Of a DNA stretch of 64,000 nt, positions 4,261 to 44,214 are shown piece by piece (the first letter of the stretch is position 1; each line of letters opens with the position of its first letter). Position numbers and translations under genes: made by a program. The notes under the pieces are model-generated. The model had not been told where the DNA came from. It saw nothing but the letters and a program-made list of their open reading frames with translations, and made no database searches. Source of the DNA: an uncultured Acidobacteriota bacterium (GTDB taxonomy: Bacteria > Acidobacteriota > JAQAZP01); contig CAWIIB010000009.1 in NCBI GenBank assembly GCA_963836075.1, positions 1,440,001-1,504,000 of the forward strand. The letters run 5' to 3'.

Positions 4261-5754
4261 ATGTCCCGGATTCTGCTCTTCGGGTTCTCCCCTCTGCCGG
4301 TGGAAAACAGTCACCGGCTGCATGCTCCGGGAATCCGAACCTGGCAGATGGCCAGCCCGCTGCTGGCCGACGGCCACGAACTGCTGCTGGTCTGCTGTCG
4401 CTACAGCGCCGGCTACGGGGACCAGGAGCCGGACACCATCGAACTGGAGCGTCCGGAGGCCGGCCTCAAGTGCCTGCTGCTCAGGGATTCCCTGTTCAAT
4501 GATGCCGGGTACCTGCAGACCCTCCACGACCAGTTCCAGCCCGACTGTGTGGTGGGCGCCACGGTGATCCCCTCGGCGGCGGCGGTGAAGCTGGAAACCG
4601 GAGCGCCCATCTGGGCCGACCTCTTTGGCCATTTCATGGCCGAGGGTCAGGCCAAGGCCTCGGTCTACCAGGATGACGAACTGCTGACCAGCTACTTCGG
4701 CATCGCTCGCTCGATCCTCCTCCGGGCGGATATCTTCTCCACGGTGTCCCACGCCCAGGAACTGGCCGCCATCGGTGAACTGGGGCTCTCCGGACGGCTC
4801 AACTCCCGGACGTCCGGCTATGGCTTCACCGTGGAGATCCCCTGTGCCATGGATGCCGAGCCGTTCCCCGAGACGGGTCCGGTGATCCGGGGCGACCTGG
4901 TGGCCGAGGATGATTTCGTGATCCTCTGGAGCGGGGGTTACAATACCTGGGCCGATGTGGACACCCTGTTCAAAGCCCTGGAAACGGCCATGAGCCGCGA
5001 CCCGGGTATCCGTTTCGTCTCCATCGGCGGTGAGCTGACCGGCCAGGACGATCGCACCTACCCCCGTTTCCGCGAGATGGTGGAGCAGTCGTCTTTGCGG
5101 GACCGGTGCTTCTTCAAGGGCTGGATCCCCACGGCGGAGGTGCCGGCGCATTACGCCGACGCCGACGTGGGGATCAACGTGGACAAGGACATCTACGAGG
5201 TCCGGCTGGGGAGCAAGAACAGGATTCTGGACTGGATGCGGGCCGGGCTGCCCGCGCTCTGCTCCAGGGTCTGCGAATTGAGCATCGCCCTGGAGGAGTC
5301 CGGGGTGGGCTTCACCTATCCCCCGGGGGACAGCGCGGCCCTGGCCGAGACCATCCTGCGGCTGGCCGCCGATCGCGAGGGGACCAGGGCCTTGCGCCGG
5401 AGGGTCCGTGAGCACGCGCTCGGCCACTACACGTTTCCGATCACCACCGAGCCGCTGCGCCGCTGGGTCCGCCACCCGGCCCCGGCTCCTGACCGGGACA
5501 ACCCGGTGCGCATCGACCAGAACTGGTATGACCGCTACGTGGACCTGCTCCGGCAAAAGGACCGCATCGTCCTCGACCTCGAGGCCTCGCTGATGAAGCA
5601 GGAGGGGACCTTGCGGCTTCACGAGGAGCGGGTGCGGGAACGCGATGAGGAGATCCGGCGGCACCGGCGCTACCGGGAGCAGGTGGAGGGGGACCGGATT
5701 TACCAGCGGCTGCAGGCACTGCGCCGCTTCTGGTCCCGGATTCGCGGCGGCTGA
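4261..5754 (+). CDS. Glycosyltransferase, GT-B fold (GT4-like), with C-terminal coiled coil
   Basis: ILWSGGYNTWAD, FFKGWIP, ADVGIN, SKNRILDWMRAGLP, GDSAALAETI; charged heptad-rich tail. Confidence 0.85.
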   Translation: MSRILLFGFSPLPVENSHRLHAPGIRTWQMASPLLADGHELLLVCCRYSAGYGDQEPDTIELERPEAGLKCLLLRDSLFNDAGYLQTLHDQFQPDCVVGATVIPSAAAVKLETGAPIWADLFGHFMAEGQAKASVYQDDELLTSYFGIARSILLRADIFSTVSHAQELAAIGELGLSGRLNSRTSGYGFTVEIPCAMDAEPFPETGPVIRGDLVAEDDFVILWSGGYNTWADVDTLFKALETAMSRDPGIRFVSIGGELTGQDDRTYPRFREMVEQSSLRDRCFFKGWIPTAEVPAHYADADVGINVDKDIYEVRLGSKNRILDWMRAGLPALCSRVCELSIALEESGVGFTYPPGDSAALAETILRLAADREGTRALRRRVREHALGHYTFPITTEPLRRWVRHPAPAPDRDNPVRIDQNWYDRYVDLLRQKDRIVLDLEASLMKQEGTLRLHEERVRERDEEIRRHRRYREQVEGDRIYQRLQALRRFWSRIRGG

Positions 5755-5795
5755 ACCGCCGGCCGGGGTCGCAACAGGACGGACGAAGAATACTC

Positions 5796-7499
5796 ATGGC
5801 CGTTGATGACAACTGGGAAATTCTGGACAACGCCAACGTGTGGCACATCAGCCCGGCCGGGGAGCTGGTGCCCGGTGCGGAGCTGGGCCAGTCCTTTGTC
5901 TGCCGCCGGCCGGGGTTGCACCGGGTGGAACTGCTGCTGGCCAATTACCAGCAGCCCATCGACTCCACCGTGCTGGTCCGGTTGCGCGAGGAGGGCCCCG
6001 GGGGGCGGTTGATCTTCCAGCGGCCGTTCAACACGCTGCAGGTGGTGGACAACGCCTGGCAGAGTTTTGATTTCCCGGTGATTCCCCACAGCGCCGGGCG
6101 GCGCTACTACCTGTCGCTCACCTCGCTCCGCGCGGACAGCGGGCGCCACATCACCGCCTGGCACCACCCGAAGCTCAAGCTGGACGGCGGGACCCTCTAT
6201 CGCAACGGGCAGGCCCAGAAACGCGGCGCGCTGAGCCTGCGAGCCTGGGTGCAGCGGGAGGAGCCGGTGCGGCGGCGCTACCACGAGTTCCGGCGGGCCT
6301 ACCGCGACGGCGTGGACGACTACCGGGAACCGCCGCTGCAGCTCTACGTGGAAGTGGCCTCGCGCTGCAACCTCAGCTGCATCATGTGCCGTGACCGGGA
6401 CGGGTCGGTGATGGTCCCCCAGAAAGCCGGCAGCGCCGCCGGGTTCATGGAGTTCGACCTGTTCCGGCAGCTCAGACCGCTGCTGGAGAGCGTCTACACG
6501 GTGAACCTCTTCGGCTGGGGTGAACCGATGCTGCACAAGGAGTTCATCCGCTTCATCGAGTTCACCCGGGAGTGCAGCAACCGCTGCCGGATCAACTTCA
6601 ACACCAACGGCACCCTGCTGAGCGCGCAGAAGGCGGCCCGGCTGGTGGAACTGGATGTGACCCGGGTCTGCTTCTCCATCGACAGCCCGGACCCCGAGAC
6701 CTTCGAAAAGATCCGCCGCGGGGCGAAGTTCGACCGGATCATCACCAACATCGACCGGCTGCGCATGCTTCGCGACGGCCGGCTGGCTTCGGGAGAGGGC
6801 AGCCGGCTGGTGCTGGCCATGGAGCAGGTGGTGATGCAGCCCAATGTGGGCCAGCTGGTGGAGACGGTGAACCTGGCCAGCCGCCTGGGCATCGGCGAAC
6901 TCTATCTCGAGCAGCTCTACGGCCCGTTCCCCGATCTGATCGTGGAGGATCTCGGGCCTCATCTCGAAGGGTACCGAGCCGCCCGGGAGGTTTCCCTGGA
7001 TCTGAACGTGGCCCTGATCGGGCCGATGGTGCGCAGGTTCGAGGCCCTGCTGGAGGGGGGTGGACGTGACGAGCCGGAAGCCGCCGGTCCCGGTGAAGAC
7101 CGGCCGGCACACCTGCCCGCCGCCCGTTGCCCCGAGCCGTGGCAGACCATCTTCGTCGATCGCACCGGCAACGTGATCCCCTGCTGTTTCCAGCAGTTCT
7201 GCACCGCCCTGGGCCGCATCCCGGAGATGACGACGGAGCAGGTCTGGAGGGGCGAGGAATACAATACCCTGCGCCGGGGCGTGGTGGACCAACCGTATTA
7301 CCCGGGCTGTGAAAACTGTATCGCCGCCCAGTTGCCGCCGCCGCCCGTCCTGTCCCCGGAATGGATGAATTCGCTGGAACTGGCCCCCCCGGGGCCGGAG
7401 CCCATCGAGATCCCCCCGGCCCCGCCGTTGCCGCCCCGGGGCGCGGCCCGCATCGCCCGTGCCATCTGGCGCCGCCTGCCCGGCGCGGGCCGGCGCTGA
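5796..7499 (+). CDS. Radical SAM protein with Twitch/SPASM-type C-terminus and an extra N-terminal beta-rich domain
   Basis: CNLSCIMC, FGWGEPMLH, FNTNGTLL, FSIDS; CPEPW...GNVIPCC...CENC auxiliary-cluster cysteines. Confidence 0.9.
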   Translation: MAVDDNWEILDNANVWHISPAGELVPGAELGQSFVCRRPGLHRVELLLANYQQPIDSTVLVRLREEGPGGRLIFQRPFNTLQVVDNAWQSFDFPVIPHSAGRRYYLSLTSLRADSGRHITAWHHPKLKLDGGTLYRNGQAQKRGALSLRAWVQREEPVRRRYHEFRRAYRDGVDDYREPPLQLYVEVASRCNLSCIMCRDRDGSVMVPQKAGSAAGFMEFDLFRQLRPLLESVYTVNLFGWGEPMLHKEFIRFIEFTRECSNRCRINFNTNGTLLSAQKAARLVELDVTRVCFSIDSPDPETFEKIRRGAKFDRIITNIDRLRMLRDGRLASGEGSRLVLAMEQVVMQPNVGQLVETVNLASRLGIGELYLEQLYGPFPDLIVEDLGPHLEGYRAAREVSLDLNVALIGPMVRRFEALLEGGGRDEPEAAGPGEDRPAHLPAARCPEPWQTIFVDRTGNVIPCCFQQFCTALGRIPEMTTEQVWRGEEYNTLRRGVVDQPYYPGCENCIAAQLPPPPVLSPEWMNSLELAPPGPEPIEIPPAPPLPPRGAARIARAIWRRLPGAGRR

Positions 7500-7513
7500 A
7501 CGGAGGACTCCGC

Positions 7514-8800: not shown

Positions 8801-8814
8801 GGGAGCACTGAAGA

Positions 8815-10119
8815 ATGCAGGAAGAACCCCTGATGCCCGAGCCGGATACAGCGCAACCGCTGGTCACCGTGGTGGTGCTGAACTACAACGGCCGTGACCA
8901 CCTGGAGTATTGCCTCCCTTCGCTGCTGGAGCTGGAATTCCCCCGGGACCGGCTGGAACTTCTGGTGGTGGACAACGGTTCCACCGACGGGTCCGACGAG
9001 GTGGTGGCCCGGTTCGCCCCGCAGGTGGAACTGCTCTCCGCCGGGGGCAACATCGGTTTCAGCGCCGGCAACAACCTGGGCGCCCGGCAGGCCCGGGGCC
9101 GCTACGTGGCCTTTCTCAACAATGACACCCGGGTGTCACCCGGCTGGCTCGCCTCGCTCTGCCGGACCATGGACGGTGCCCCCAACGCGGCCGCCGTGGC
9201 GGGCAAACTGCTGTCCTGGGACGGGTCTCGCCTCGATTTCGGCAAGGGGATCATCACCTTTGACGGTCACGCCTTCCAGGAGGGCGCCGGACTGCCGCTG
9301 GACCGCGATCCCCACCACCAGGTGGCCGAGACCTTCATCCCCTGCGGCGGGAACATGCTGGTGCGCCGGGAACTGTTTCTGGAACTGGGCGGGTTTGACG
9401 AGGACTACTTCGCCTATCTCGAGGACGTGGACCTGGCCTGGCGCTTCTGGGCTTCGGGCCACCGGGTGCTCCTGGACCCCGGCGCGGTGGCCTACCATCG
9501 CTCGGAAGGGACTTCCGGCCGGATGGACCCCTTTGACCGCGGTTTTCTTTTCGAACGCAACGCGTTCATCACCGCGGTGAAGAACCTGGACCAGGAATAT
9601 TTCCCCCGGGTGTTTCCAGCGGTGCTGTTGACCTTGATCAACCGCACCATGTGTCTCGGCCCGCGACTGGCCGACCGGGAGGGCCTGCTGGGCCGCTATC
9701 CCTTCACCAGCGAGGGGTACACCGGGGATCTGGGGGCGGCCCGCACCAACAGCGGGCAGAAACCCGGACCGCGGAGGGGCGGGCGCCTGCGGGACATGGC
9801 GGCCCGGATCGGGCGCTGGCTGCTGCCGGAGCAGGAGGATCGCCGGTCGGCCCTGACCATGGACCACCCGCACAGCATCAGCCAGTTGCGGGCGGTGCAC
9901 TACGTCCTGGAAAATCTCGACGCGATCCTGGAGAAGCGCCGGTTGGTGCAGGCCAAACGGCGGGTGGCCGACCGCACGATTTTCGGCCGGTTCCCGCTGC
10001 ACCTGGTGCCCACCTACCCCGGCGATGCGGAGCTGTTCCAGACCCGATTTTTCCAATGGCTGCTGACCGTGGAGACGCAGTGGAAATCCCTCGAGGAGAT
10101 TCAGCACAGCGATGAGTGA
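8815..10119 (+). CDS. Glycosyltransferase family 2
   Basis: VVVLNYNG, VVDNGSTDGS, NIGFSAGNN, FLNNDT, GGFDEDYFAYLEDVDL. Confidence 0.92.
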   Translation: MQEEPLMPEPDTAQPLVTVVVLNYNGRDHLEYCLPSLLELEFPRDRLELLVVDNGSTDGSDEVVARFAPQVELLSAGGNIGFSAGNNLGARQARGRYVAFLNNDTRVSPGWLASLCRTMDGAPNAAAVAGKLLSWDGSRLDFGKGIITFDGHAFQEGAGLPLDRDPHHQVAETFIPCGGNMLVRRELFLELGGFDEDYFAYLEDVDLAWRFWASGHRVLLDPGAVAYHRSEGTSGRMDPFDRGFLFERNAFITAVKNLDQEYFPRVFPAVLLTLINRTMCLGPRLADREGLLGRYPFTSEGYTGDLGAARTNSGQKPGPRRGGRLRDMAARIGRWLLPEQEDRRSALTMDHPHSISQLRAVHYVLENLDAILEKRRLVQAKRRVADRTIFGRFPLHLVPTYPGDAELFQTRFFQWLLTVETQWKSLEEIQHSDE

Positions 10120-11086
10120 GCGCACCGCACTCGTGGAACTTTCGGTGGTCATCCCCACCTACAACCGGCTGGAGATTCTCCGTCGCGCCCTGCGGCTGCT
10201 GGCGGAGGAGGGGGAGGCCTTTGGCGCGCCCCACGAAGTGCTGCTGGTGGACGACGGCTCGACCGACGGCACCGCGGACTACCTGGCCGGCGATACCGTG
10301 CCGCGGGCCTCCACCGCACGGTTGCGGGTGATCAGCCAGGAGAATGCCGGTCCGGCCCGGGCCCGGAACCGCGGCGTGCAGGAAGCCGCCGGCGAACTGG
10401 TGCTCTTTCTCGGCGACGACATCCTGGTCACCCCGGGTCTGCTGGCCCTGCATGTGGAGGCTCACCGGTCCAGGAGCGGTTCCGGCGAGGTGGCGGTCCT
10501 CGGCCGCACCCTCTGGGCGCCGGAGATGCGTCCCAACGCTTTTCTCCGTTTTTTGATGGAGGGCGACCAGTTCGGTTTCAAGCACATCGAGGATCACGAA
10601 AACGTGCCCTATAATTTCTTTTACACCGCCAACGTCTCCCTGCGCCGCCAGGCGATGCTCGACGCCGGACTGTTCGACGAGAGCTTCCCCCACGCGGCCT
10701 GGGAGGATGTGGAACTCTGCTACCGGATGACCCGGGACGGGATGCGGCTGGTCTACGAACCACGGGCCCTGACCCACCACCTGCACCCCACCAGTCTCGC
10801 CTCCTTCTGCCGCCGCCGGGAACTGGTGGGGGTGGATGCGGTGCGGCTCTACCGCACACACCCGGAGACGGAAAAGATGCTCGCCTTCGACTGGCGACCC
10901 ACCGAGGACCCGGCACTCTGGAAACGGCGATCCGCGGAGTGGTTCGAGAGCACGTACGCCTGGCTGGAGCAGCGGCGGCTGGACCGCGGCCCGCTCTGGG
11001 CCTGGCGGTTTTTCTTCCGCCGCCTCTCCTGGTACCATTACTTCAAGGGCGTCCGGCAGGGGCTGGCTGAGGAGGATGGGCAGTGA
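10112..11086 (+). CDS. Glycosyltransferase family 2
   Basis: SVVIPTYNR, VDDGSTDGT, GPARARNRG, FLGDD, FDESF...WEDVEL. Confidence 0.92.
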   Translation: MSERTALVELSVVIPTYNRLEILRRALRLLAEEGEAFGAPHEVLLVDDGSTDGTADYLAGDTVPRASTARLRVISQENAGPARARNRGVQEAAGELVLFLGDDILVTPGLLALHVEAHRSRSGSGEVAVLGRTLWAPEMRPNAFLRFLMEGDQFGFKHIEDHENVPYNFFYTANVSLRRQAMLDAGLFDESFPHAAWEDVELCYRMTRDGMRLVYEPRALTHHLHPTSLASFCRRRELVGVDAVRLYRTHPETEKMLAFDWRPTEDPALWKRRSAEWFESTYAWLEQRRLDRGPLWAWRFFFRRLSWYHYFKGVRQGLAEEDGQ

Positions 11087-12162
11087 TGTTTTCGATTATC
11101 GTTTTCAATTACAACGGCGGCACCCGGCTGGAAAACTGCCTGGCTGCACTGAAGTCGCTCCGGGCCCCCGAGGGGGCGGAGCTGGAGCGGCTGCTGGTGG
11201 ACGTCGACTCGGGCAGCGGGTTGGCCGAACGGATGAAGGCCCAGGATCCCGGGTTACGGCTGCTCAGCATGCCGGTGCGCCTCGGCCTCACCGAGTCGCT
11301 GAACCAGGCGGCCCGCGCCTCCGCCGGGCAGTACCTGGCCATGGTCCACTTCCACCAGGTGCTGCACCCCTCGTGGCTCACCGCCTGTTTCCAGCCCCTG
11401 GAGTCGGCGGGGGCCGCAGGGACACCAGCCTGCACCTTTTCCCACAGCGCCACCGACCTGGCCAGCGGGCGGGTCTGGGAGGCGGGTGACACCAGCGGTC
11501 TGACCGAGGTGCTCCACCCGTCCCCGGGGGCCATGCTGGTCGAGCGGGAAGCTTTTGTCGAATGCGGTGAATTCGACGGTGATTACTATGTTGCCGAGGA
11601 GAACGTGGACCTCGGTTTCCGGCTCTGGCAGCAGGGCCGGACCGTGGTGCGGGTGAGCGGCGACCTGGCCCGGTCCTCCGGGCCGGGGGTTATCGGCCAT
11701 TACGGCAAGGCTGAACAGTCCTTCTTCCACACACGCAACCGTCTGTTCACCGTGATCAAGAACTACGAACTGGACTCCATCTACCGCATTCTCCCCACCC
11801 TGCTGGTGGAAATGTTCAGCGATGTCTGGAGCCGTGCCGGTCTGGACTGGGAGCGCTACCGCTTTGAGCGGGCCGCGAAGAAGTTCGCTGGTGACGAGGC
11901 GAAGATCACCCCCGAGGCCGCGGCGGGACTGCTGGCTCTGGACGACCTGCTGGGCCGTTTCGACCGTCTGCGCTCCACCCGGCGGGCCGTCCAGGCGGCG
12001 CGCCGGCTTTCCGACGCCGAGATCTTTTCCCGGGTGCCCCACCCCTACGACACCCACCGGCCGTCGGAAGCCGGACCGGCGGAGTCCTCGCTCATCGAGC
12101 GCTTTCGCCTCCTGATGGAGGCGCTGGCCGAGGAGGATGGCGGAGGCGCAGCGCGGTCATGA
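11083..12162 (+). CDS. GT2-fold protein with degenerate catalytic motifs
   Basis: SIIVFNYNG, FDGDYY, VDLGFRL and RNRLF keep the GT2 scaffold, but the NND position reads HFH and EDVD reads ENVD. Confidence 0.7.
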   Translation: MMFSIIVFNYNGGTRLENCLAALKSLRAPEGAELERLLVDVDSGSGLAERMKAQDPGLRLLSMPVRLGLTESLNQAARASAGQYLAMVHFHQVLHPSWLTACFQPLESAGAAGTPACTFSHSATDLASGRVWEAGDTSGLTEVLHPSPGAMLVEREAFVECGEFDGDYYVAEENVDLGFRLWQQGRTVVRVSGDLARSSGPGVIGHYGKAEQSFFHTRNRLFTVIKNYELDSIYRILPTLLVEMFSDVWSRAGLDWERYRFERAAKKFAGDEAKITPEAAAGLLALDDLLGRFDRLRSTRRAVQAARRLSDAEIFSRVPHPYDTHRPSEAGPAESSLIERFRLLMEALAEEDGGGAARS

Positions 12163-17885: not shown

Positions 17886-19091
17886 GTGAACCCCTCGCTG
17901 ATCCACCGCCTGATCTGTCCCTACTGCCGCACGCACGGTCTGGGCCTCTACGTGCTGGAGGACGAGCCGCGGGCCGGAGCGGGAGAGCCGGGTGCGGAAC
18001 AGCAGGGGGAGGTGTCGGCCGGACTGATCTCCTGTGGCGGCTGCGGCCGCTTTTTCCGCATCGAGGCCGGTGTGCCGTCGCTGATCTTCGGCGGCGACGG
18101 CGGCTGGCTCGCACCCTTCCTGGCCCGCTGGGGCGATGAGCTGGAAGGGCGGCTGGACCGCACCCTGCCCCGTGACGACTCCCTGGACGAGGTGCTTGCC
18201 GACGGCGATTTCTGGGCCCGGTTCTACCGCCAGGCCATGGAGCGCGGCTATCTCCACTTCCTCGATGTCCAGCAGCCGCTGGCCCCGCTCTACCTCCACG
18301 GCGTGCTGGAAACGCTCCATTTCTCCGGTCCGGATGGCCGTTTCAACTTCGAGCACCAGCCCTTTCTCAAGCAGGTGCTCAGCAGCCTGACCCGGGGGGC
18401 CGGGGCGTTGCCGCCGGGCGGCAGCCTGCTGGAGCTGGGCTGTGGTTCGGGGTGGCTCTGTCTCGAGCTGGCCCGGCGGGGACTGCGGCCGGTGGGTCTG
18501 GACACCGGTTTCCAGTCGCTGGTCCTGGCCCGGCTCTACGCCAGGCAGCAGGGGCTGGACATCGACTACGTTCACGCCGACGGCGGCCGGCTGCCCTTTG
18601 CCCCCCGGAGCTTCGACGGCCTGGTGGGCTTCCAGGCCCTGCACCACATCCCCCGCCTGCTGGAAACGGCCCGTCACCTGCGCACCATACTGCAGCCCGA
18701 CGCGCCGGTGGTGATCTTCGAGCACCGTGCCGAACGGACGCCACGGCTGCAGCGGTTTGCCGAGAACCTGCACCAGCGGCTCCTCCTGCGGGTGGGCGGC
18801 CGCTACCTGATCCACTCCATCTTTCCCTCCCGGGCGTCGGCAAACGAGGACTGTTCGCTGGACCAGGTGGACGAGATGCTGGACGGGTTCCGCTCCCTGC
18901 GGCGCAGGCGCTACTACCTCTTCCTCCAGGACCTGCCGGGGTTTGCCTACCTGCTGGTGGGGCGCAGCCGGCTGGTGTTCAGACTCACGGCGGCAATGAC
19001 CAACGGGGTGGACCGGCTCTTCTCGCTGTTCCGGCCCTCGACCTGCGAGCACATCCTCCAGGTGGGACGGAACCGTGGGGAAACGGGATGA
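17886..19091 (+). CDS. Class I SAM methyltransferase with N-terminal Trm112-like zinc module
   Basis: LICPYC...ISCGGCGRFFRIEAGVP; LLELGCGSG, ADGGRLPF, ALHHIP. Confidence 0.85.
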   Translation: MNPSLIHRLICPYCRTHGLGLYVLEDEPRAGAGEPGAEQQGEVSAGLISCGGCGRFFRIEAGVPSLIFGGDGGWLAPFLARWGDELEGRLDRTLPRDDSLDEVLADGDFWARFYRQAMERGYLHFLDVQQPLAPLYLHGVLETLHFSGPDGRFNFEHQPFLKQVLSSLTRGAGALPPGGSLLELGCGSGWLCLELARRGLRPVGLDTGFQSLVLARLYARQQGLDIDYVHADGGRLPFAPRSFDGLVGFQALHHIPRLLETARHLRTILQPDAPVVIFEHRAERTPRLQRFAENLHQRLLLRVGGRYLIHSIFPSRASANEDCSLDQVDEMLDGFRSLRRRRYYLFLQDLPGFAYLLVGRSRLVFRLTAAMTNGVDRLFSLFRPSTCEHILQVGRNRGETG

Positions 19092-32471: not shown

Positions 32472-32492
32472 CCGGACGAGAAACGTATTCTT

Positions 32493-32535
32493 CGGCGCCG
32501 GGTGTTCGCCGCTTCAACAGGCGGGACCCGGCGTC
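32493..32535. terminator. Hairpin between convergent genes (possible bidirectional terminator)
   Basis: GGCGCCGGGT...ACCCGGCGTC outer stem with inner CGCC/GGCG; lies between the stops at 32471 (+) and 32538 (-); no strong U-tract. Confidence 0.45.
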
Positions 32536-32537
32536 TT

Positions 32538-34826: not shown

Positions 34827-34838
34827 GAGGTATCGATG

Positions 34839-37214: not shown

Positions 37215-37268
37215 AAGGGAGAGGATACGTCCATCCGTGGGGACAATTCCAGTACCCTGGATCCAGTT

Positions 37269-37296
37269 TTGCTCCCCCCGGGCCCTGTGCTATGAT
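37269..37296 (+). promoter_or_regulatory. Probable sigma70 promoter (extended -10) for the MMPL gene
   Basis: TTGCTC, 16 nt, TATGAT with a preceding TG (TGCTATGAT), in the divergent intergenic region. Confidence 0.5.
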
Positions 37297-37382
37297 TCGC
37301 GCGCCCTGAATGCCCCGTCATCAGGGCCATGGGGGCTTTTTTTCCGTTATCCGGGCGGCGGCAGACAAGGTTTCAGAGGCAG

Positions 37383-39914
37383 ATGATCTCCCGATTCCTC
37401 CAACTCTGGGCCAAGGTGGTCTATCGGTACTACCTGGTGGTCCTGTCCCTGGCCCTGATACTCACCCTGGCCTGTTTTTCCTTCCTCAGCCGCATCGAGT
37501 TCCGCACCGACGTGATGGCCCTGCTGCCCCACGATCTGCCGGCAGTGCGGTATCTTCTGGAAGCGCGGGACGATTTTGGCGCCGACCTGGTGCTGATGGT
37601 GGTCACCAGGACCGACGGCGGCCAGGTGATCGACTCCACCGACGTGGTGGAGGACCTGGCCGAGCTGATCGGGGAGAGCGAACTGGTGGCCGGGGTTGAC
37701 TACAACCTCCTGGCCGACCTGCCCTACGACGCTATCCTGCGCCACCTGCCGGTGCTGATGGAACCGGGCTCTCTTCCCCGGCTGGCCGAGCGGCTCACAG
37801 ACCATGCCATTGCCGACCAGGTGGCCAAGGACCGGCTGGCCCTGATCTCCATTCCGGCGCCGATGGTCCAGGAACTGATCCGGCGTGACCCGCTGGACCT
37901 GTTCGGCCTGATCCGGGGCAGGTTCACCAGCTGGGGCGGCAGCGAGAAGCTGGCCACCACCGACGGCTACTTCATCAATGGCGACGGCGACTGCCTGCTG
38001 GCCCTGATCCGGCCCACCCAGAGCAGCGACGACGTGGACTACGACGAGGCGCTGATGGCGATGCTCAACAGCAGCCGTGATGAACTGCTGGCCGAGTATG
38101 TGGAGCAGGACGAGCTGGAGCCGGGACTGCTGCAGGTGGCGTTCACCGGCCCGCATATCATCGCCGCCATCGAGGCGAACCTGATTCGCCGGGAGATGCT
38201 CCAGGCGGTGCTGCTCTCCCTGCTGGGTGTGCTGGTCCTCTTTGCCGTGGCCTTCAAGCGGGTGGGTTCCTTCCTCTACATCGGGTTGCCGCTGGTGGCT
38301 GCCGGCTCCTGGACCATGGGCTTCTGCTACCTCTACACCGGTTCCATCACCCTGCTGGGCGGGGCGGTGCTGGCGATCATGATCGGGCTGGGCGTCGACT
38401 TTGCGATCCACATCTTCAGCCGTTTTCTCGACTACCGGGGCGACGGCAAGAGCCCGCTGGAGTCGCTTTCCATCGCCATGGGCGAAACCGGGCGCAGCGT
38501 TTTCACCGGGGCGGTGACCACGGCAATGGCCTTCTACGCCATGTCGCTCTACGACTTCAAGGGCATTCGCGAGTTCGGGGTGATCACCGGCACCGGCGTG
38601 CTGCTCTGCATGATCTCCATGTTCACCGTGCTGCCGGCGATGCTCACCTTCCGGGCCAAGATCGTCAAGCGCTACCACCACAAGAAGCTGTTCACCTTCG
38701 GCACCGAGCAGCTGGCCCGCACGGTGCAGCAGCACTACCGCCTGGTGCTGGTCCTCTTTGCCCTGCTGACCCTCTTTCTCGGCTGGCAGGCGCTGCACCT
38801 GGACGTGGAGGAAGGCTTTGCCGCCACGCGGGCGGAGATCAACCCGGCCTACCGGCTGATGGGCGAGGTACAGCAGTCTTTCGGCATCAACTTCCAGCCG
38901 ATCATCCTCACCCTGGAGGGGCAGGACCTGGCCCGGGTGGAGGAGATGGCTGCCGCGGCCGACCGGCAACTGGGTCCGCTGGTCCAGCGGGGGTTGCTGC
39001 GCTCCTTCGACTCGATCTTCAACTATCTGCCCACCCGCTCCCAGCAGGAAGTCAATGTGGCGGGGACGCTGGAGATGTGCTCGTACCTCGATCCGGAGAG
39101 GGTGGAACGGGTGTTCCTGGAGGAACTGGAGGCCGGCGATTTCGATACCGGGATGTTCAGCCACTATGCGGCCACGGTCCGCTCGGCCCTGGAGGACCCG
39201 CGGGTGCTGACGGTGAACCACGTCCTGCGCACCGAGTCGCTCTACCGCTACTTCTTCCGTTACATGGCCTTCAAGGGCGACGGCTCGATCCGGCTGGCCT
39301 ACTACCTCTACCCGGCCCGCCGGCCGGCCGGCGAGGAACTGCTGGGCGAGCTGGAGCAGATGACCGCCGCTCTATCCGGCCTGGGCGGCGGGGCCCACGT
39401 CTCGGGGATTCCCATCCTGACCGACGAGTTGAAACGGCTGACCCGCCACGGCTACAAGGTTGTGTCACTGCTGGCCCTGGGCCTGGTAGTCCTGGTGCTC
39501 AGCATCCATTTCCGCAAGCCGGGCCGGGTGGCCCTGGTGCTGGCGCCGCTGGTGCTGGCCGTGATCTGGCTCACCGGGATCATGGCCCTCTTCGACGTGC
39601 GGTTGAACATCATGAACGTGGCGGTGACACCGATGATCCTCGGCATCGGCATCGACTACGCCGTCTACACCATGCACCTCTATTTCCAGAGCAAGGGCAC
39701 CAGCCTGCCCCTGGTGTTGCGCACCAGCGGCAAGGCGCTGGTGCTGAGCACCATCACCACCACCGTCGGGTTCGGCTCGCTGGTCATCGCCCGCCACCCC
39801 GGCCTCTCCACCATGGGCCTGCTGGCCACCATCGGCGTCTCGCTCTGCCTGCTGGCCACCATCTGCTTCCTGCCGGCGGCGATCACCCTCCGCGAGCGGA
39901 TTCTTGATCGATGA
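37383..39914 (+). CDS. MMPL/RND-family inner-membrane exporter
   Basis: Two-fold repeated architecture (1 TM, periplasmic loop, 5 TM); GLGVDFAIH and GIGIDYAVY motifs; TTTVGFGSL. Confidence 0.9.
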   Translation: MISRFLQLWAKVVYRYYLVVLSLALILTLACFSFLSRIEFRTDVMALLPHDLPAVRYLLEARDDFGADLVLMVVTRTDGGQVIDSTDVVEDLAELIGESELVAGVDYNLLADLPYDAILRHLPVLMEPGSLPRLAERLTDHAIADQVAKDRLALISIPAPMVQELIRRDPLDLFGLIRGRFTSWGGSEKLATTDGYFINGDGDCLLALIRPTQSSDDVDYDEALMAMLNSSRDELLAEYVEQDELEPGLLQVAFTGPHIIAAIEANLIRREMLQAVLLSLLGVLVLFAVAFKRVGSFLYIGLPLVAAGSWTMGFCYLYTGSITLLGGAVLAIMIGLGVDFAIHIFSRFLDYRGDGKSPLESLSIAMGETGRSVFTGAVTTAMAFYAMSLYDFKGIREFGVITGTGVLLCMISMFTVLPAMLTFRAKIVKRYHHKKLFTFGTEQLARTVQQHYRLVLVLFALLTLFLGWQALHLDVEEGFAATRAEINPAYRLMGEVQQSFGINFQPIILTLEGQDLARVEEMAAAADRQLGPLVQRGLLRSFDSIFNYLPTRSQQEVNVAGTLEMCSYLDPERVERVFLEELEAGDFDTGMFSHYAATVRSALEDPRVLTVNHVLRTESLYRYFFRYMAFKGDGSIRLAYYLYPARRPAGEELLGELEQMTAALSGLGGGAHVSGIPILTDELKRLTRHGYKVVSLLALGLVVLVLSIHFRKPGRVALVLAPLVLAVIWLTGIMALFDVRLNIMNVAVTPMILGIGIDYAVYTMHLYFQSKGTSLPLVLRTSGKALVLSTITTTVGFGSLVIARHPGLSTMGLLATIGVSLCLLATICFLPAAITLRERILDR

Positions 39915-40059
39915 CCGTTCATTTGCTACTCTCCAACCAGTTTTTTTGTGAATCGGCATAAACCTCGAATGGTTGCCGGCGTATCATATTGAGAGAAGAG
40001 CACCTATTCAGTCCGGAACAGGCCATACATCGCACCACACCCAGGGAGCTGGAATACCA

Positions 40060-41382
40060 GTGATCATCAAAAATAGCTACCGAAGCGGACGATCCGCGGC
40101 CGCCGTGCCGCTGGTCCTCCTCCTCGCCCTCCTGCCCTTCTGTGCCGGGTGCGGTCCCGGCGGTGTGAGCGAGGTCCCCACCCACTCCGTGGCCCGGGGC
40201 GAATTCCGGATCAGCGTTGTGGAGAGCGGGGAACTGAAGGCCCAGAACTCCATCGTCCTCTCCGCGCCGCGGACCCGCTTCGGCACGGTGCAGATCGTCG
40301 ACCTGGTGGAGGAGGGGAGCCAGGTGGCCGAAGGTGATTTCGTGATCCAGTTCGACACCACCGAACCGCAGAAACGGATCGATGACAAGCAGGCCGAGCT
40401 GGAGATCTCCCTTGCCGACCAGCGCAAGATGAAAACAGACCAGGATTCCCGGATGAAGGACCTGGGCCACGCGCTGGTCAACCAGGAGGCCTCGCTGGAG
40501 CTCCAGGAGCTGCGCCAGGAGCGGATGCGCTTCGAGGCCGAATCCTCCCGCCGGGAAGTGGAGCTGGAGGTGACCCGGGCCCGGCTGGCCGTGGAGCAGG
40601 CGCGGGAAAAGATCGAGACCCAGGGGATCATCGACACCGAGGAGCGGCGCAAACTGGAGTTGAAGCTGCAGCAGGTGCGCAACGAACTGAACGCGGCGCT
40701 GAAGGACATGGGCAAGCTGACCCTGACGGCGCCGGCCCCGGGGCTGGTGGTCTACCGTGAGAACTGGTCCACCGACACCAAGGTCCAGGTGGGGGACAAC
40801 CCCTGGCCCGGTATGCCGCTGGTCGAGCTGCCCGACCTCTCGCGGATCGTCGCCGCGACCCAGATCAACGAGGTGGACGTGAGCAAGGTGGCCGAGGATC
40901 TGGACGTGATCGTCACCCTCGATGCCTTCCCCGAGAAATCGTTCACCGGCAAGATCTCCGACATCGCTACCCTGGCCACCGAGAAGGAGCGGCGCTCCTC
41001 AGTGAAGGTCTTCACTGTTGAGGCGGTGCTCGACCAGTCGGACCCGATCATGAAGCCGGGGATGACGGTCAAGGTGGAGGTGGTGGTGGAACGGATTCCC
41101 GACGTGATCTACGTGCCGCTGGAGTCGGTGTTCGAACGGGGTGACGGGATGATCTGCTACGTGCGCGCCAACGGGTCGTTCGAAGAGCGCCAGGTGACCC
41201 TGGGCAAGCGCAACGACAACTTCGTCGTGGTGGAGCAGGGTCTGGAGGAGAGCGAGCGGGTGGCGCTGCGTGACCCCAACCTGGCCCTGGAAGCCATCGG
41301 GCTGCCTGACGACTCTGACACCGAGGAGGACGCACCCGCGCCCGCCGCGGCGCCCGAGGGCCGAGTGATGATCGTGGGCTGA
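40060..41382 (+). CDS. Periplasmic adaptor / membrane fusion protein (MacA-like)
   Basis: Signal ending CAGC; VEEGSQVAEGD lipoyl half; long coiled coil; APAPGLV; MKPGMTVKV; VEQGLEESERV. Confidence 0.9.
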   Translation: MIIKNSYRSGRSAAAVPLVLLLALLPFCAGCGPGGVSEVPTHSVARGEFRISVVESGELKAQNSIVLSAPRTRFGTVQIVDLVEEGSQVAEGDFVIQFDTTEPQKRIDDKQAELEISLADQRKMKTDQDSRMKDLGHALVNQEASLELQELRQERMRFEAESSRREVELEVTRARLAVEQAREKIETQGIIDTEERRKLELKLQQVRNELNAALKDMGKLTLTAPAPGLVVYRENWSTDTKVQVGDNPWPGMPLVELPDLSRIVAATQINEVDVSKVAEDLDVIVTLDAFPEKSFTGKISDIATLATEKERRSSVKVFTVEAVLDQSDPIMKPGMTVKVEVVVERIPDVIYVPLESVFERGDGMICYVRANGSFEERQVTLGKRNDNFVVVEQGLEESERVALRDPNLALEAIGLPDDSDTEEDAPAPAAAPEGRVMIVG

Positions 41383-41409
41383 CCTGGTTGCTCACCCGGG
41401 ACGTGAACC

Positions 41410-42696
41410 ATGAAACTGACCGAAAACCTCTCCGTGGGCCTCGGCGGCCTCATCGACCACAAACTGCGCACCCTGCTGACCATGCTGGGCATCATCTTCG
41501 GTGTGGCCGCGGTGGTGTCCATGCTCTCCATCGGTGAAGGCGCCCGGCAGGAGGCGCTGAAGAAATACGAGATGCTCGGGGTGAACAACATCATCGTCCG
41601 GGAGAAGCCGATGAACCAGGACGAGCTGGAAAAGGTCCGGGCCGCCTTCTCCCGGGGGCTCTCGGTCCGTGACGCCGAGAGCCTCACCGAGATCGTGCCT
41701 TACGTGGTTGTGGCCGCGCCCCAGCGCGAGGTGGAACTGGACGTCAAGTACCGCGATGTCAGCACCAGCCGGATGGTGGTGGGCACGGTGATTTCCTACC
41801 AGCAGCTGATCAACTACTACGTGGAGAAGGGCTCCTTCTTCAACCACACCCAGTACGAGCAGTGCGAAAAGGTGTGCGTGCTCGGGGCGGGGGTCAAGCG
41901 CAAGCTCTTCCCGCTGGAGGACGCGCTGGACAAGATGGTCAAGCTGGGGGACCAGTGGTTCAGGGTCATCGGGGTGATGGAGCGCAAGGGGCAGTATCTG
42001 GAGGCCAGCGGGGTGGCGGCGATCCGCGACCTGGACGAGGACATTTACATCCCGCTGAGCACCTCCACCGAGCGGCTGGAGATGGCGGCCACTTCCATGG
42101 GGCGGGGGGCCCGTCGCGGGTCCGGCTACGAACGCACCAGGCTGAGCAGCGAGATCGACCAGATCACCATCCGGGTGAAGCAGAGTGAAGACCTGCCCGA
42201 GGCGGCCAACCTGATCAAGCGGATCCTGCTGCGCCGCCACCACAACAACAAGGACTTCGAGGTTATCGTCCCCGAAGCCCTGCTGGCCCAGGAGCGGAAG
42301 GAGAAGCGGATTTTCGACATCGTCATGGCCTGCATCGCCGGTATCTCGCTGCTGGTGGGCGGTATCGGCATCATGAACATCATGCTGGCCACGGTGCTGG
42401 AGCGGACCAGGGAGATCGGGGTGCGCCGGGCCATCGGCGCCACCCGGTCCGACATATTGGGCCAGTTCGTGGTGGAGGCATCGCTGATCAGTTTCATCGG
42501 CGGTGCCATCGGCATTTTCGTCGGTTTTGCCATGGCCTTCACCATCGACCAGGTGGCCAATTTCCGGGCGGTGGTGACCCTGTCCTCGATCATCGTCGCC
42601 TTTGGCGTGTCCACCCTGGTGGGCCTGGTATTCGGTATCTACCCGGCGCGGAAGGCGGCGCAGCTGGACCCCATCGAGGCTCTGCGATACGAGTGA
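41410..42696 (+). CDS. MacB/FtsX-type ABC permease (no nucleotide-binding domain)
   Basis: KLRTLLTMLGIIFGVAAV, ISLLVGGIGIMNIMLATVLERTREIGVRRAIGA, FGIYPARKAAQLDPIEALRYE. Confidence 0.95.
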   Translation: MKLTENLSVGLGGLIDHKLRTLLTMLGIIFGVAAVVSMLSIGEGARQEALKKYEMLGVNNIIVREKPMNQDELEKVRAAFSRGLSVRDAESLTEIVPYVVVAAPQREVELDVKYRDVSTSRMVVGTVISYQQLINYYVEKGSFFNHTQYEQCEKVCVLGAGVKRKLFPLEDALDKMVKLGDQWFRVIGVMERKGQYLEASGVAAIRDLDEDIYIPLSTSTERLEMAATSMGRGARRGSGYERTRLSSEIDQITIRVKQSEDLPEAANLIKRILLRRHHNNKDFEVIVPEALLAQERKEKRIFDIVMACIAGISLLVGGIGIMNIMLATVLERTREIGVRRAIGATRSDILGQFVVEASLISFIGGAIGIFVGFAMAFTIDQVANFRAVVTLSSIIVAFGVSTLVGLVFGIYPARKAAQLDPIEALRYE

Positions 42697-42720
42697 GGCG
42701 ACTGCACACTGGAGGCGTTG

Positions 42721-44214
42721 ATGAAGAGAATGGACCTGCGCGAGATCGTTCCGTTGCGGCCGACTCTGCTGTCAGTGATGCTGGCGGTGATGCTGGTGTC
42801 CGCCGGCGCGCCGGCCGCTGCCGGTGAGGAGGCGGCGGAGACCATCCAGGCGGGGCGGCTGCTGACGCTGGAGGAGAGTGTGGGCATCGCCCTGGAGCGC
42901 AACTTCGGCATCCGCCAGCAGCGGCGCAGCCATCTCTCCGCGGTGCAGGACCTGAAGCACGCCCGGGCCGAACGTTTCTACCCCCGGGCCTGGTCCGAGT
43001 TCCTGCTCCCCTCGTACCGCAAGGATACTATCAGCCAGTTTGACCTGGACACCGGGATCGAGGTGTTCGTCCCCAGCGATACCACCACGTACGACGGGTC
43101 GGTCTACGTGGCCCTGCCGATATTCACCGGCGGCTACTTCCAGGCCAGCTACGACGCGTTTCGCCTTGACCAGACCTCCGGCGACAACGAGGTCCACACC
43201 TGGTCCAGCACCAGCCGCCTCTCCTTCATCCAGCCCTTTCTTGGCGACAACGAGAACAAGCTGGCCGAGACCCGGGCCGAGACCGGTCTGCAGATCGCCG
43301 AGGAAGCCCTGCGGCGGCAGGTGGCCGGGCTGACCTACAATGTGGCCGCCGCGTACTACGGGCTGGTGCGGGCGATCAAGCGGGAGGAGATCGGCCGCGA
43401 CCGGATGGAGCAGGCCCGGGCGAGCTACGAGATCGCTTCCAACAAGTACGCCGCCGGGCTGATCCCCGAGGTGGAGGCGATGCAGCTGGAAGTGGAGGTG
43501 GCCCGGGCCGAGGCCGACCAGGAGAGTTTCAAGGCCACCCGGCAGGGAAACGAGGACCAGTTCCGGGACCTGCTCGGCCTGGGTCTGGACGATGACGTGG
43601 GCGTGGTCACCGAGATCCCGCAGGTGGCGGAGGAGATCGACCTCCAGGCCGCGGTGCAGCAGGCACTGGCCACCCGCAGCGATATCCGGGAACAGGAGCT
43701 CCAGATCCAGATATCCCATCTGGACCTGCGCAGCGTGCGCCGGGAGAACAACCTCAGGGGCAACCTCTCCATGTATTACGGATACGACGGCAAGGAGGAG
43801 AGCTACTCCGACACGCTGGACACATGGCGGCCCAACGAGGGGTTGACCTTCAACCTCACCCTGCCGATCTTCGATTCGGGGCGCAACAAGGCCCGGGTCA
43901 CCCAGCAGCGGCTCTCCCTGGAAAGCCTCGAACTGGGGCTGACCGACCTGCGGCGGCGGGTGGAACTGGAAGTGCGCGAGGCGGTGCGGGCGGTGGAAGA
44001 GGCGAAAACCAGGTTGGATATTCTCGCCTCCACCATGCGGGTGGCCGAGCGGACCTACGACATCAACCTCCAGCGCTTCGAGGTGGGAATCCTGACCAGC
44101 CAGAATCTCTTCCAGGAAGAGGTCCGCCTCAACGAGACCCGGCTGGAGCACCTCAACGCCGTCATCGACCTCAACCTGGCCTGGGCCCGCTACGAGCGGG
44201 TGGTGAACCAGTAG
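42721..44214 (+). CDS. TolC-family outer-membrane channel
   Basis: Signal peptide; LTLEESVGIALERN; AAYYGL; LTLPIFDSG; RFEVGILT repeat pattern of outer-membrane efflux proteins. Confidence 0.9.
   Translation: MKRMDLREIVPLRPTLLSVMLAVMLVSAGAPAAAGEEAAETIQAGRLLTLEESVGIALERNFGIRQQRRSHLSAVQDLKHARAERFYPRAWSEFLLPSYRKDTISQFDLDTGIEVFVPSDTTTYDGSVYVALPIFTGGYFQASYDAFRLDQTSGDNEVHTWSSTSRLSFIQPFLGDNENKLAETRAETGLQIAEEALRRQVAGLTYNVAAAYYGLVRAIKREEIGRDRMEQARASYEIASNKYAAGLIPEVEAMQLEVEVARAEADQESFKATRQGNEDQFRDLLGLGLDDDVGVVTEIPQVAEEIDLQAAVQQALATRSDIREQELQIQISHLDLRSVRRENNLRGNLSMYYGYDGKEESYSDTLDTWRPNEGLTFNLTLPIFDSGRNKARVTQQRLSLESLELGLTDLRRRVELEVREAVRAVEEAKTRLDILASTMRVAERTYDINLQRFEVGILTSQNLFQEEVRLNETRLEHLNAVIDLNLAWARYERVVNQ

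Follow-up and report, generated by a model that had tools for sequence, protein, structure and literature searches.

Threonine-type sulfatase-fold lipoproteins encoded alongside glycosyltransferases in an uncultured Acidobacteriota bacterium

A 40-kb gene cluster, at positions 4261-44214 of a 64,000 nucleotide (nt) stretch of DNA from an uncultured Acidobacteriota bacterium (positions 1,440,001 to 1,504,000 of contig CAWIIB010000009.1, assembly GCA_963836075.1; hereafter the window, to which all positions refer unless a locus is named), encodes seven lipoproteins that have a sulfatase-type catalytic domain with Thr as the putative nucleophile, together with enzymes that could make a surface glycoconjugate. 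From sequence and modelled structure we propose, tentatively, that a methylated glycan may be made in the cytoplasm and then processed outside it by these lipoproteins, acting as metal-dependent phospho(di)esterases. Open reading frame (ORF) listing, third-codon-position G+C content and Pfam searches confirm the cluster as an operon-like gene set. It has six glycosyltransferase (GT) genes that encode seven GT domains, including a methyltransferase (MTase)-GT2-GT4 fusion, a second MTase, a radical S-adenosylmethionine (SAM)/SPASM enzyme, the seven PF00884 lipoproteins, designated S1 to S7, a 1299 amino acid (aa) FG-GAP protein, an MMPL protein and an adaptor/permease/TolC set. A first-pass annotation, made from the sequence alone, had listed GT, MTase and radical SAM genes, seven Thr-type lipoproteins, a large protein and exporters, with six GT genes of which one was fused to an MTase, and both the inventory and the count are borne out.

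All of the parts belong to known superfamilies, the logic of building inside and modifying outside is familiar, and no new principle is involved; the arrangement itself was not found described in literature searches. Full-text searches, with supplements outside their coverage, returned no description of the Thr-type lipoprotein family or of this type of cluster. The value of the locus lies in an uncharacterised and widely mis-annotated Thr-type family and in the provision, in one place, of the enzymes and a probable substrate pathway. If these proteins are phospho(di)esterases or glycan editors, then sulfatase counts used to estimate sulfated-polysaccharide degradation from metagenomes are inflated, and soil and sediment bacteria have a common activity, in the envelope or outside the cell, that is still unnamed. 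The window provides a test case, with seven paralogs that carry three kinds of module in one operon-like unit with the probable substrate-making enzymes, a second lineage in which the association is kept, and lipoprotein ectodomains that should be soluble, expressible and assayable.

Active sites and ancestry of the lipoproteins

S1 to S7 all match PF00884 (E 3e-35 to 3e-50) and are mutually paralogous, with pairwise BLASTP E values of 5e-32 to 0. S1 (12159-14099, + strand; 646 aa) is located inside the run of GT genes, matches PF00884 at 3e-37 and PF01663 at 2.5e-14, and ends KALGYLQ. S3 (21508-23841; 777 aa; PF00884 3e-50), S4 (23819-26107; 3e-37) and S5 (26104-28398; 764 aa; 9e-44) are also encoded on the + strand, S4 with an LTGC lipobox and a likely GTG start at 23819 that overlaps the end of S3, and S6 (32538-34826; 762 aa; 8e-41) and S7 (34839-37214; 791 aa; 3e-35) are encoded on the - strand. 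Over their full lengths, S3, S5 and S6 are 41-43% identical (43% for both S5 and S6 compared with S3) and S4 and S7 are 38% identical; S1 and S2 each stand alone. A hydrophobic leader that ends in a lipobox Cys is present in all seven.

The nucleophile position is occupied by Thr in all seven, and none contains the C/S-x-P-x-R motif. S1 has the sequence T-T-A-S-H at this location, and T-x-P-S occurs in the rest, with V, T or M as the next residue; HMMER alignments to solved sulfatases place the Thr opposite the nucleophilic Cys or Ser and a Val or His opposite the Arg of the motif. With Thr as the nucleophile, and no C/S-x-P-x-R, these lipoproteins, as judged from their sequences, cannot be formylglycine sulfatases. 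According to those passages of the SulfAtlas paper that deal with such proteins (PMC5066984), Thr-bearing members of PF00884 are not to be counted as sulfatases, and oxidation of the Thr would yield a ketone, a reaction described there as never demonstrated. All seven retain D-x-L-R-A-D, D-P-H (D-I-H in S7), D-H-G-E/D and (D/E)-H-G...H and, with these metal ligands and His residues in place, S1 to S7 look like working metal enzymes. The Mn-dependent arylsulfatase EfAS, with an NCBIfam model that the window proteins also matched, was considered as a precedent for a Thr-type enzyme and rejected; the portion of its description that covers the active site assigns catalysis to Cys61/formylglycine (PMC12421950).

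The lipoprotein genes had been annotated as seven paralogs. All seven are present, but the frame of S2 (19088-21493, + strand) is broken. Its leader begins at ATG 19088, stop codons follow in this frame at 19394 and 19514, and the PF00884 domain (2e-47) is encoded by 19535-21493. By third-position G+C, coding shifts to another frame at ~19250 and is back in the first by ~19540, and there is a run of five G residues at 19231. S2 is therefore either a pseudogene or the product of two compensating assembly indels.

The closest relatives of the catalytic domain are formylglycine sulfatases and phosphonate monoester hydrolases (PMH). Among PDB sequences, 7oz8 is matched over the whole protein (E 1.2e-35), and 4upl, 6hhm and 2vqr are matched by half-domains (~1e-12); NPP1 chains match the N-terminal half of S1 at 2.5e-7, and EptA-type chains match the C-terminal half at only 0.01-0.03. 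An AlphaFold (AF2) model of S3, based on an alignment of 23 sequences, had a predicted local distance difference test score (pLDDT) of 79.6 and a predicted template modelling score (pTM) of 0.84. With the catalytic part of this model, Foldseek identified carbohydrate sulfatases of family S1 (not to be confused with lipoprotein S1), at template modelling (TM) scores, relative to the target, of 0.64-0.68. By sequence and by predicted fold, the catalytic domain is thus best regarded as an offshoot of the S1-family sulfatase/PMH branch in which formylglycine has been exchanged for Thr. In common with the enzymes of that branch, the window proteins have the metal-binding Asp and Asp-His residues, the P-H His and a C-terminal subdomain of the SGSH_C type. 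They differ in having the Thr nucleophile, in the replacement of the motif Arg by Val, Thr, Met or His, and in the addition of a lipoprotein anchor, N-terminal beta-sandwich modules and the sequence L-x-A-L-G-Y at the end of the domain. Distance from the curated families is substantial. The best NCBIfam sulfatase model, PRK13759, gives scores of 95-174 bits relative to a cut-off of 481, and none of S1 to S7 reaches the cut-off of the curated arylsulfatase, choline-sulfatase, PehA or Mn-arylsulfatase models.

The kinship with LtaS, EptA and OpgB that had been suggested initially does not hold; the nearest sequences and folds are those of the formylglycine sulfatases and PMH, and there is no membrane domain. 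LtaS, EptA/MCR and OpgB do have a Thr nucleophile and a ligand set of the single-metal type, as do the window proteins, and act extracytoplasmically on polymers of the envelope, as envisaged here for the lipoproteins. Matches to the NCBIfam EptA, MCR and LtaS models are, however, confined to the D-H-G-E ... H-G region (E 1e-8 to 1e-10; 18-38 bits relative to cut-offs of 404-1250), and the window proteins lack the N-terminal multi-pass membrane domain of these enzymes. In S1, S3 and S5 to S7, the signal peptide is the single hydrophobic segment and there is none further. Sequence and model thus both argue that the window lipoproteins are outside the LtaS/EptA/OpgB lineage. Enzymes of the nucleotide pyrophosphatase/phosphodiesterase (NPP) family, PF01663, also have a Thr nucleophile, and all seven proteins exceed the PF01663 cut-off of 23 bits (S1, 54.1; S2, 49.7; S3, 45.6; S5, 35.9; S4, 33.3; S6, 30.6; S7, 26.4). 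In each case, however, the PF01663 match is weaker than the match to PF00884, so that NPP enzymes resemble the window proteins less well than do sulfatases, and the C-terminal half is sulfatase-like.

Upstream of the catalytic domain there are N-terminal modules of three types, one in S3, S5 and S6, one in S4 and S7 and one in S1 and S2. Residues 40-325 of S3 are predicted to be all-beta, with pLDDT values >90, and to form beta-sandwiches at 63-198 and 213-324; when this N-terminal part was modelled alone the pLDDT was 89.8. Foldseek matched the model to the tandem CBM22 of a xylanase (E 1e-8), to a tandem CBM51 and to a Bacteroides surface glycan-binding protein, SGBP-B, and also to jelly-roll domains in reelin and in several toxins. 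As far as the model goes, the tandem has a carbohydrate-binding-like fold and can be assigned no further. It is a rare module. Only 21 of 1.84 billion cluster representatives matched it at E <=1e-3, and 8 at E <=1e-30, all of the latter being proteins of 740-790 aa save for one truncated protein of 342 aa.

Cytoplasmic enzymes and a possible glycan pathway

Fourteen + strand genes, from GT4a through S5 and then the FG-GAP protein gene, are arranged in series and, over 4261-28398, the intergenic gaps range from -8 to +41 nt if GT4b is translated from TTG 7514. The window has a G+C content of 60-71%, and third-codon-position values of 0.82-0.90 in the called frames single out one coding frame per gene. 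The series begins with GT4a (4261-5754; 497 aa), a soluble GT4 enzyme that has no hydrophobic segment (Pfam Glyco_trans_1_4 6e-14, Glycos_transf_1 1e-10). GT4b, of the Pfam GT1-group, is in an ORF that opens at 7361 and ends at 8800, with 7514, a TTG preceded by GGAGGA, as its likely start. There are then three GT2 genes, GT2a (8815-10119; 434 aa; Glycos_transf_2 2e-23), GT2b (10112-11086; 324 aa; GT2 2e-22, and NCBIfam EPS_EpsD at 1.7e-55 but under the cut-off) and GT2c (11083-12162; 359 aa; GT2 3e-11). S1 separates these from the trifunctional fusion enzyme (14117-17869; 1250 aa), which has an N-terminal Zn-ribbon followed by Methyltransf_23 (residues 99-248), Glycos_transf_2 (283-454) and Glyco_trans_1_4 (862-1018) domains. 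The separate SAM-dependent MTase (17886-19091; 401 aa; Methyltransf_11 2e-15) has a Trm112-like Zn-ribbon at its N-terminus (NCBIfam Trm112_arch 2.6e-4). Apart from one marginal stretch in GT2b, the GTs, MTases and radical SAM enzyme contain no hydrophobic segment. The overlaps of lipoprotein start codons with GT and MTase stop codons, noted in the first-pass annotation at 12159 and 19088, are real ATGA overlaps, with the stop of GT2c overlapping the start of S1 (12159-12162) and the stop of the MTase overlapping the start of S2 (19088).

The layout of the fusion enzyme is that of WsaE from Geobacillus stearothermophilus, which likewise combines an MTase and two GT domains in one soluble polypeptide and is encoded by a gene that overlaps its neighbours; it is the layouts that are compared here, as given in those parts of the WsaE report that describe the enzyme and its locus, and not the sequences. 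As described there, the methyltransferase of WsaE is N-terminal and its two GT domains are rhamnosyltransferases; the enzyme builds the repeat of an S-layer rhamnan and adds a terminating 2-O-methyl group before export by Wzm/Wzt (PMC2943079). WsaE is accompanied by Wzm/Wzt, WsaP and rml genes, none of which is present among the window ORFs scanned. Homologs of the fusion enzyme that are 85-91% identical are encoded in five relatives, and the GT2-GT4 core has many MTase-less relatives in Acidobacteriota, Actinomycetota and Chloroflexota, some of them named rhamnosyltransferase in the source databases.

The radical SAM/SPASM enzyme (5796-7499, + strand; 567 aa; Radical_SAM 9e-16, SPASM 6e-11) has a CX3CX2C motif and, within its N-terminal ~170 aa, a domain of no known family. 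Residues 21-151 are homologous to residues 1119-1248 at the C-terminus of the fusion enzyme (E 2e-8; encoded by 5796-6300 and 17470-17869, respectively), and this common domain suggests that the two enzymes might recognise the same cytoplasmic substrate or partner. In the Atlas, the domain matched only hypothetical proteins, at scores of <=0.86, below the 0.9 level. The best NCBIfam models for the radical SAM enzyme are maturases of metalloenzymes and of the tungsten cofactor and twitch radical SAM enzymes, all under their cut-offs, and there is no sulfatase-maturase model in the best 25 of its 40 NCBIfam matches. A peptide natural product (a ribosomally synthesized and post-translationally modified peptide), to be made by the radical SAM enzyme with the GTs and MTases, was also considered and rejected, as there is no room for a precursor ORF in the 41 nt upstream of the radical SAM gene or downstream, where the next gene either overlaps or begins after 14 nt.

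The presence, in one cluster, of PF00884 proteins and a radical SAM/SPASM enzyme, with carbohydrate sulfatases as the nearest structures, invites the explanation that the lipoproteins are classical sulfatases and the radical SAM/SPASM protein their anaerobic maturase. Given Thr in all seven active sites, the lack of any C/S-x-P-x-R motif, the shortfall from the NCBIfam sulfatase models, the absence of a maturase model from the 25 best matches, and an N-terminal domain in common with a cytoplasmic GT fusion, we consider the chance of this to be negligible. A variant in which oxidation by the radical SAM/SPASM enzyme would turn the invariant Thr of W-T-x-P-S into a 3-oxo residue, a ketone analogue of formylglycine and so a new protein-derived cofactor, is very improbable. 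It is consistent with the retention of the P-S of the maturase motif and with the radical SAM/SPASM gene that also occurs in a related cluster of Thermoanaerobaculia, at five loci (see below). The two radical SAM enzymes are, however, only 22% identical, 75 of 80 loci lack a homolog of either one within 10 kb, the radical SAM enzyme of the window has a domain in common with the cytoplasmic GT fusion, and the sulfate-binding Arg is lost. Were it true, this large family of pseudo-sulfatases would be a second, so far unrecognised, class of true sulfate or phosphate esterases that edit surface glycans.

The proposal that we prefer, of a methylated glycan processed by extracytoplasmic phospho(di)esterases, can be set out as follows. 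The two GT4, three GT2, fusion, MTase and radical SAM/SPASM enzymes would constitute eight soluble enzymes for a surface glycoconjugate, with the GTs assembling a carrier-bound, methylated sugar chain at the inner face of the membrane, probably with an O-methyl cap such as WsaE gives to an S-layer glycan. Once the glycan had been exported, the lipoproteins would bind it by their CBM-like N-terminal modules, and the metal-activated Thr would attack a phosphate (di)ester to form a phospho-Thr intermediate, which water would then resolve. Phospho-substituents might in this way be trimmed or remodelled, or the chain freed from its carrier, and the three module types would presumably confer different substrate specificities. 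The leaning towards a phosphoesterase comes from the Pfam Phosphodiest matches (to 2.5e-14), the NPP1 match, the EptA models near D-H-G-E and NPP-type neighbours at 8 of 39 loci. Transfer to an acceptor might also occur, but hydrolysis is the more likely, because the lipid-donor membrane domain of LtaS, EptA and OpgB is missing and the usual neighbours are NPP-type esterases. A methyl-capped glycan, made inside and edited outside, had been suggested originally; the WsaE-like MTase-GT-GT enzyme fits this, but for the editing step a hydrolase is more economical than a transferase.

Distribution of the family and the glycosyltransferase linkage

A word-indexed search with S3, in which 8000 candidates were scored, identified 844 homologs at E <=1e-3. 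Among the best 120 of these 844, ~24 cover >90% of S3 at 40-68% identity and the rest have only the catalytic domain in common with it. As counted with simple patterns, the nucleophile in the 120 is Thr in 92, another letter in 3 and unmatched by the pattern in 25, [L/M]-G-Y is present within the last 14 residues of 103, and 75 have a lipobox-like leader. The source annotation of the family is "arylsulfatase A-like enzyme" or "sulfatase". When one genome per species was scanned, at least 574 relatives were confirmed, and the best 80 loci (L001-L080), with proteins 27-39% identical, were studied. They come from Thermoanaerobaculia and other Acidobacteriota, Planctomycetota, Myxococcota and other "delta" metagenome-assembled genomes (MAGs), KSB1, LCP-89, Binatia, Gemmatimonadales, Fermentibacteria and others; 55 have Thr, 1 has Ser and 24 are unmatched at the nucleophile position, and 65 have the L-G-Y end. 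Two or more Thr-type genes are present at 25 of the 80 loci. L-x-A-L-G-Y was considered as a sorting or TPR-docking tail, and rejected; in all six TPR-fused homologs L-x-[A/S]-L-G-Y closes the catalytic domain and lies inside the protein, and so is a domain-end signature rather than a sorting tail. The L-x-A-L-G-Y region is of low confidence in the AF2 model of S3. At one locus, L065 (6198-8738, a Phycisphaerales MAG), an 846-aa protein with an FGE-sulfatase domain, resembling the formylglycine-generating enzyme, is encoded just upstream of the Thr-type gene.

Fusion enzyme homologs (85-91%) are located on contigs of 70316, 74262, 32399, 436878 and 35073 bp, S3/S5-type homologs on contigs of 70316, 74262, 436878 (three paralogs) and 35073 bp, and homologs of elongation factor G (EF-G; 84-87%), the gene for which flanks the cluster in the window, on contigs of 108319, 51400 and 436878 bp, sizes that also hold S-type homologs. 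From four such coincidences of size, the fusion and S-type genes are likely co-located in at least four close relatives. S3 orthologs are 57-68% identical in relatives in which the fusion enzyme is 85-91% and EF-G 84-87% identical, and by this comparison of sequences the lipoproteins are evolving much faster than either.

Linkage is also kept at a greater distance. When the 80 loci were searched by tblastn, orthologs of GT4b (38-42% identity), GT2a (43-48%) and GT2c were found beside the Thr-type gene at L001-L004 and L015, and orthologs of GT2b (46-51%) at two of these, L004 and L015. On the Acidobacteriota chromosome of L004 the order is radical SAM/SPASM, GT2, GT4, fatty-acid hydroxylase, 2-oxoglutarate oxygenase, MTase, a 241-aa GT2, YfhO, an ORF without a Pfam family, a Thr-type gene, PIG-L+GT2, GT4b, GT2a, an S1-like Thr-type gene, GT2b and a PEGA protein (Pfam), with the S1-like protein, encoded between GT2a and GT2b, 37% identical to S1. 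This order is kept, at 57-76% protein identity, at L001-L003 and L015 and in the available part of L005, and the block of GT4b, GT2a and GT2b is accompanied by either one or two Thr-type genes. At L001-L004 (L004 5754-8719), the GtrB-like 241-aa GT2 and YfhO directly precede the Thr-type gene and the PIG-L deacetylase-GT2 fusion follows it. Such a GT2 and YfhO pair recalls extracytoplasmic CsbB/GtrB-YfhO glycosylation; it occurs in this Thermoanaerobaculia/Acidobacteriota cluster, whereas neither gene is present in the window. The radical SAM enzymes of the two clusters (22% identity, E 8e-5) need not be orthologs. An association with GT genes had been a check proposed with the first-pass annotation, and it is kept in the close relatives and at these five loci but is far from general in the family.

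Neighbouring genes were called as the longest non-overlapping ORFs, with a third-position G+C filter, a procedure that is approximate, especially above 70% G+C. Three called genes were available on each side at 41 of the 75 other loci, and 39 of these were scanned with Pfam, a total of 237 proteins that includes those encoded between paralogs; L075 was scanned on one side only and L077 and L078 were left out. The resulting figures are raw counts and not a measure of enrichment over background. A GT-family neighbour is present at 7 of the 39 loci (L006, L009, L017, L056, L057, L059, L074), a sugar-nucleotide enzyme at 5 (L038, L043, L069, L074, L075), an NPP-type (PF01663) protein at 8 (L009, L010, L017, L038, L053, L056, L060, L075), an FG-GAP protein at 5 (L011, L024, L032, L052, L068), and a glycoside hydrolase together with a heparinase II/III-like protein at 1 (L053). 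Pst, PhoU or similar markers of phosphate starvation are present at none of the 39 loci, among the 237 neighbour proteins. As indicated by these sequence comparisons, the GT association is real in two lineages and occasional elsewhere, and the most regular companions are other enzymes of the alkaline-phosphatase superfamily.

Several of these findings, and some from the window itself, weigh against the pathway proposed. The majority of the loci, 64 of 80, have no tblastn homolog (E <=1e-5) of the window GT, MTase or radical SAM proteins; 16 have at least one and 9 have two or more. Similarly, at 32 of the 39 loci sampled the nearest genes do not include a GT. At L053 (834-18318, a KSB1 MAG), four Thr-type paralogs are located between a GH39 and Golvesin_C protein and heparinase II/III-like and NPP-type proteins, in what looks to be a degradative setting, unlike that of the window. 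The co-location in close relatives equates contigs by inference from matching bp figures. Both halves of the catalytic domain are nearer to sulfatases and PMH (E ~1e-12) than to NPP or EptA enzymes, which leaves room for loss of function or for a sulfate ester substrate, and the interruption of S2 adds to this side of the balance. Within the site, as the sequences read, nothing replaces the lost motif Arg, which in turn weighs on the idea of a sulfate ester substrate. The carbohydrate-binding assignment of the S3 tandem is by fold only, with ~10% identity and tandem TM values of 0.33-0.36, expected to be low because the angle between the domains differs, and in the Atlas the N-terminal part of S3 scored 0.84-0.88, led by the GH98 CBM/NPCBM, under the 0.9 level. 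No flippase, Wzm/Wzt, priming transferase or nucleotide-sugar gene is present among the window ORFs scanned, as had been noted for all but the priming transferase in the first-pass annotation, and a single product for the exporters, the large protein and the GT genes is a supposition.

An alternative explanation is that the lipoproteins are general scavenging or degradative esterases that would act extracytoplasmically to free phosphate or sulfate from organic esters in the environment or from foreign glycans, apart from the GT pathway. The scarcity of GT neighbours is in its favour, as are the frequency of paralog arrays (25 of the 80 loci), often beside NPP-type genes, and the arrangement at L053, and the greater divergence of the S3 orthologs is as expected of fast-evolving, substrate-facing enzymes. 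It accounts less readily for the overlaps of the S1 and S2 starts with the GT2c and MTase stops, for an S1-type gene within the orthologous GT block of the other phylum-level lineage, for the lack of any Pst or PhoU-type gene in the neighbourhoods sampled, and for the presence of some glycan-related neighbour at 12 of the 39 loci. We regard this explanation as rather unlikely, although it deserves serious consideration.

Exporters, FG-GAP protein and flanking genes

In addition to the GT and lipoprotein genes, the cluster has a transporter of the resistance-nodulation-division superfamily, MMPL/HAE3 type (37329-39914, + strand; 861 aa), that is encoded divergently from S7, has nine hydrophobic segments and matches Pfam MMPL at 8e-31. 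Its best NCBIfam models are HpnN (1.6e-65), HAE3 (5e-55) and BstA (4e-49), all under their cut-offs. Downstream, also on the + strand, are genes for a periplasmic adaptor, or membrane fusion protein (39973-41382; HlyD_D23; NCBIfam RND_mfp at 101.1 bits, above the cut-off of 94.9), a MacB-type permease (41410-42696; 428 aa; MacB_PCD/FtsX, Pfam 1.4e-36 and 1.5e-22) and a TolC-family outer-membrane channel (42718-44214; OEP 7e-46). The domain content of these four genes (37329-44214) is that of HpnN/MmpL exporters and of MacAB-TolC and DevBCA-TolC pumps. Relative to HpnN, HAE3 and MacB, however, the window proteins score under the cut-offs, and the permease has no ATPase domain and aligns only to MacB positions 254-646. 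The adaptor-permease-TolC set had been annotated as such, and the genes are there, with the permease encoded between the adaptor and the TolC-type channel, but the window ORFs scanned include neither an ABC ATPase gene nor any such domain.

These exporters are part of the basis for a further alternative, that the product is not a polymer on undecaprenyl phosphate but a glycolipid. The soluble GT4 and GT2 enzymes would add sugars and methyl groups to a membrane lipid, which the MMPL/HAE3 protein and the DevBC-like adaptor-permease-TolC set would carry to the outer membrane, for the lipoproteins to act on there. MacB-type DevBCA-TolC exports heterocyst glycolipids, and the adaptor has a weak match to DevB (3.7e-6). 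The best models for the MMPL protein, HpnN and BstA, are transporters of hopanoid and sterol lipids, GT4b weakly matches a GlcN-phosphatidylglycerol synthase model (3e-7), and fatty-acid hydroxylase genes are present at L004 and L044. All of the GTs are soluble, and a priming phosphoglycosyl transferase is among the polymer-export functions missing, with flippase and Wzm/Wzt, from the window ORFs scanned. Scores with the HpnN, BstA, DevB and GlcN-phosphatidylglycerol synthase models are, however, far under the cut-offs, no MMPL homolog is encoded within 10 kb at any of the 80 loci, and an ATPase partner for the permease is missing from the window. The GtrB-like GT2 and YfhO of the Thermoanaerobaculia cluster point instead to a polyprenol-phosphate sugar route, and the MTase-GT-GT layout is typical of polymer makers. 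A glycolipid product is, on balance, improbable.

The secreted FG-GAP protein (28572-32471, + strand; FG-GAP 4e-12, FG-GAP_3 7e-9) has one hydrophobic segment, at the N-terminus, and is made up of repeated beta-sandwich modules, Asp-rich repeats that resemble Ca-binding sequences and a C-terminal FG-GAP propeller. It had been thought to share a domain with one of the lipoproteins, and this is so for S2. A module that ends L-R-x-D-P ... I-D-W/F-I-R-L/F is common to the N-terminus of S2 and three sites in the 1299-aa protein, with a BLASTP E value of 8e-5 over 36 aa and, with the S2 piece as the phmmer query, an E value of 4e-13 and matches at the three sites. The GTs and lipoproteins may form one system with the FG-GAP protein and with the MMPL and MacB-type/TolC exporters but, from sequence, this is the weakest link of the proposal for a glycan that is made inside and processed outside. 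S6 and S7 are convergent with the large FG-GAP gene and divergent from the MMPL gene. A second FG-GAP protein (51624-53213; FG-GAP_2, E 4e-55) is encoded 7 kb past the cluster.

The cluster is flanked on the left by genes for QueD, QueC and a Zn-ribbon protein and on the right by genes for EF-G, PanBCD, dNK, FolK, Obg and NadD, and with housekeeping genes on both sides the limits of 4261-44214 are sound. The C-terminal part of another GT2 is encoded at 2-433 and runs off the left end of the window, with the queuosine genes between it and the cluster, and further glycan genes may be located upstream of the window. No Rfam family reaches its gathering score across window positions 1-64000. A scan of 26000-45000 returned no promoter-like sites, and 16 weak terminator-like sites compared with 7.5 expected. 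EF-G (44690-46816) has a best identity to a named taxon of 53-54% (Deltaproteobacteria, Binatia, Nitrospirota and Firmicutes MAGs), in keeping with a deep-branching lineage that is sparsely sampled. Adjoining folK, a 598-aa protein (53715-55511) has a C-terminal nitroreductase domain as its sole Pfam match (E 8e-12). A 235-aa protein that matches the histone H1-like nucleoprotein HC2 family (E 3e-11) is encoded at 58497-59204 and is followed by a LapA-domain/TPR protein (59233-60693); the outer-membrane channel, the lipoproteins and this LapA/TPR protein fit a diderm envelope.

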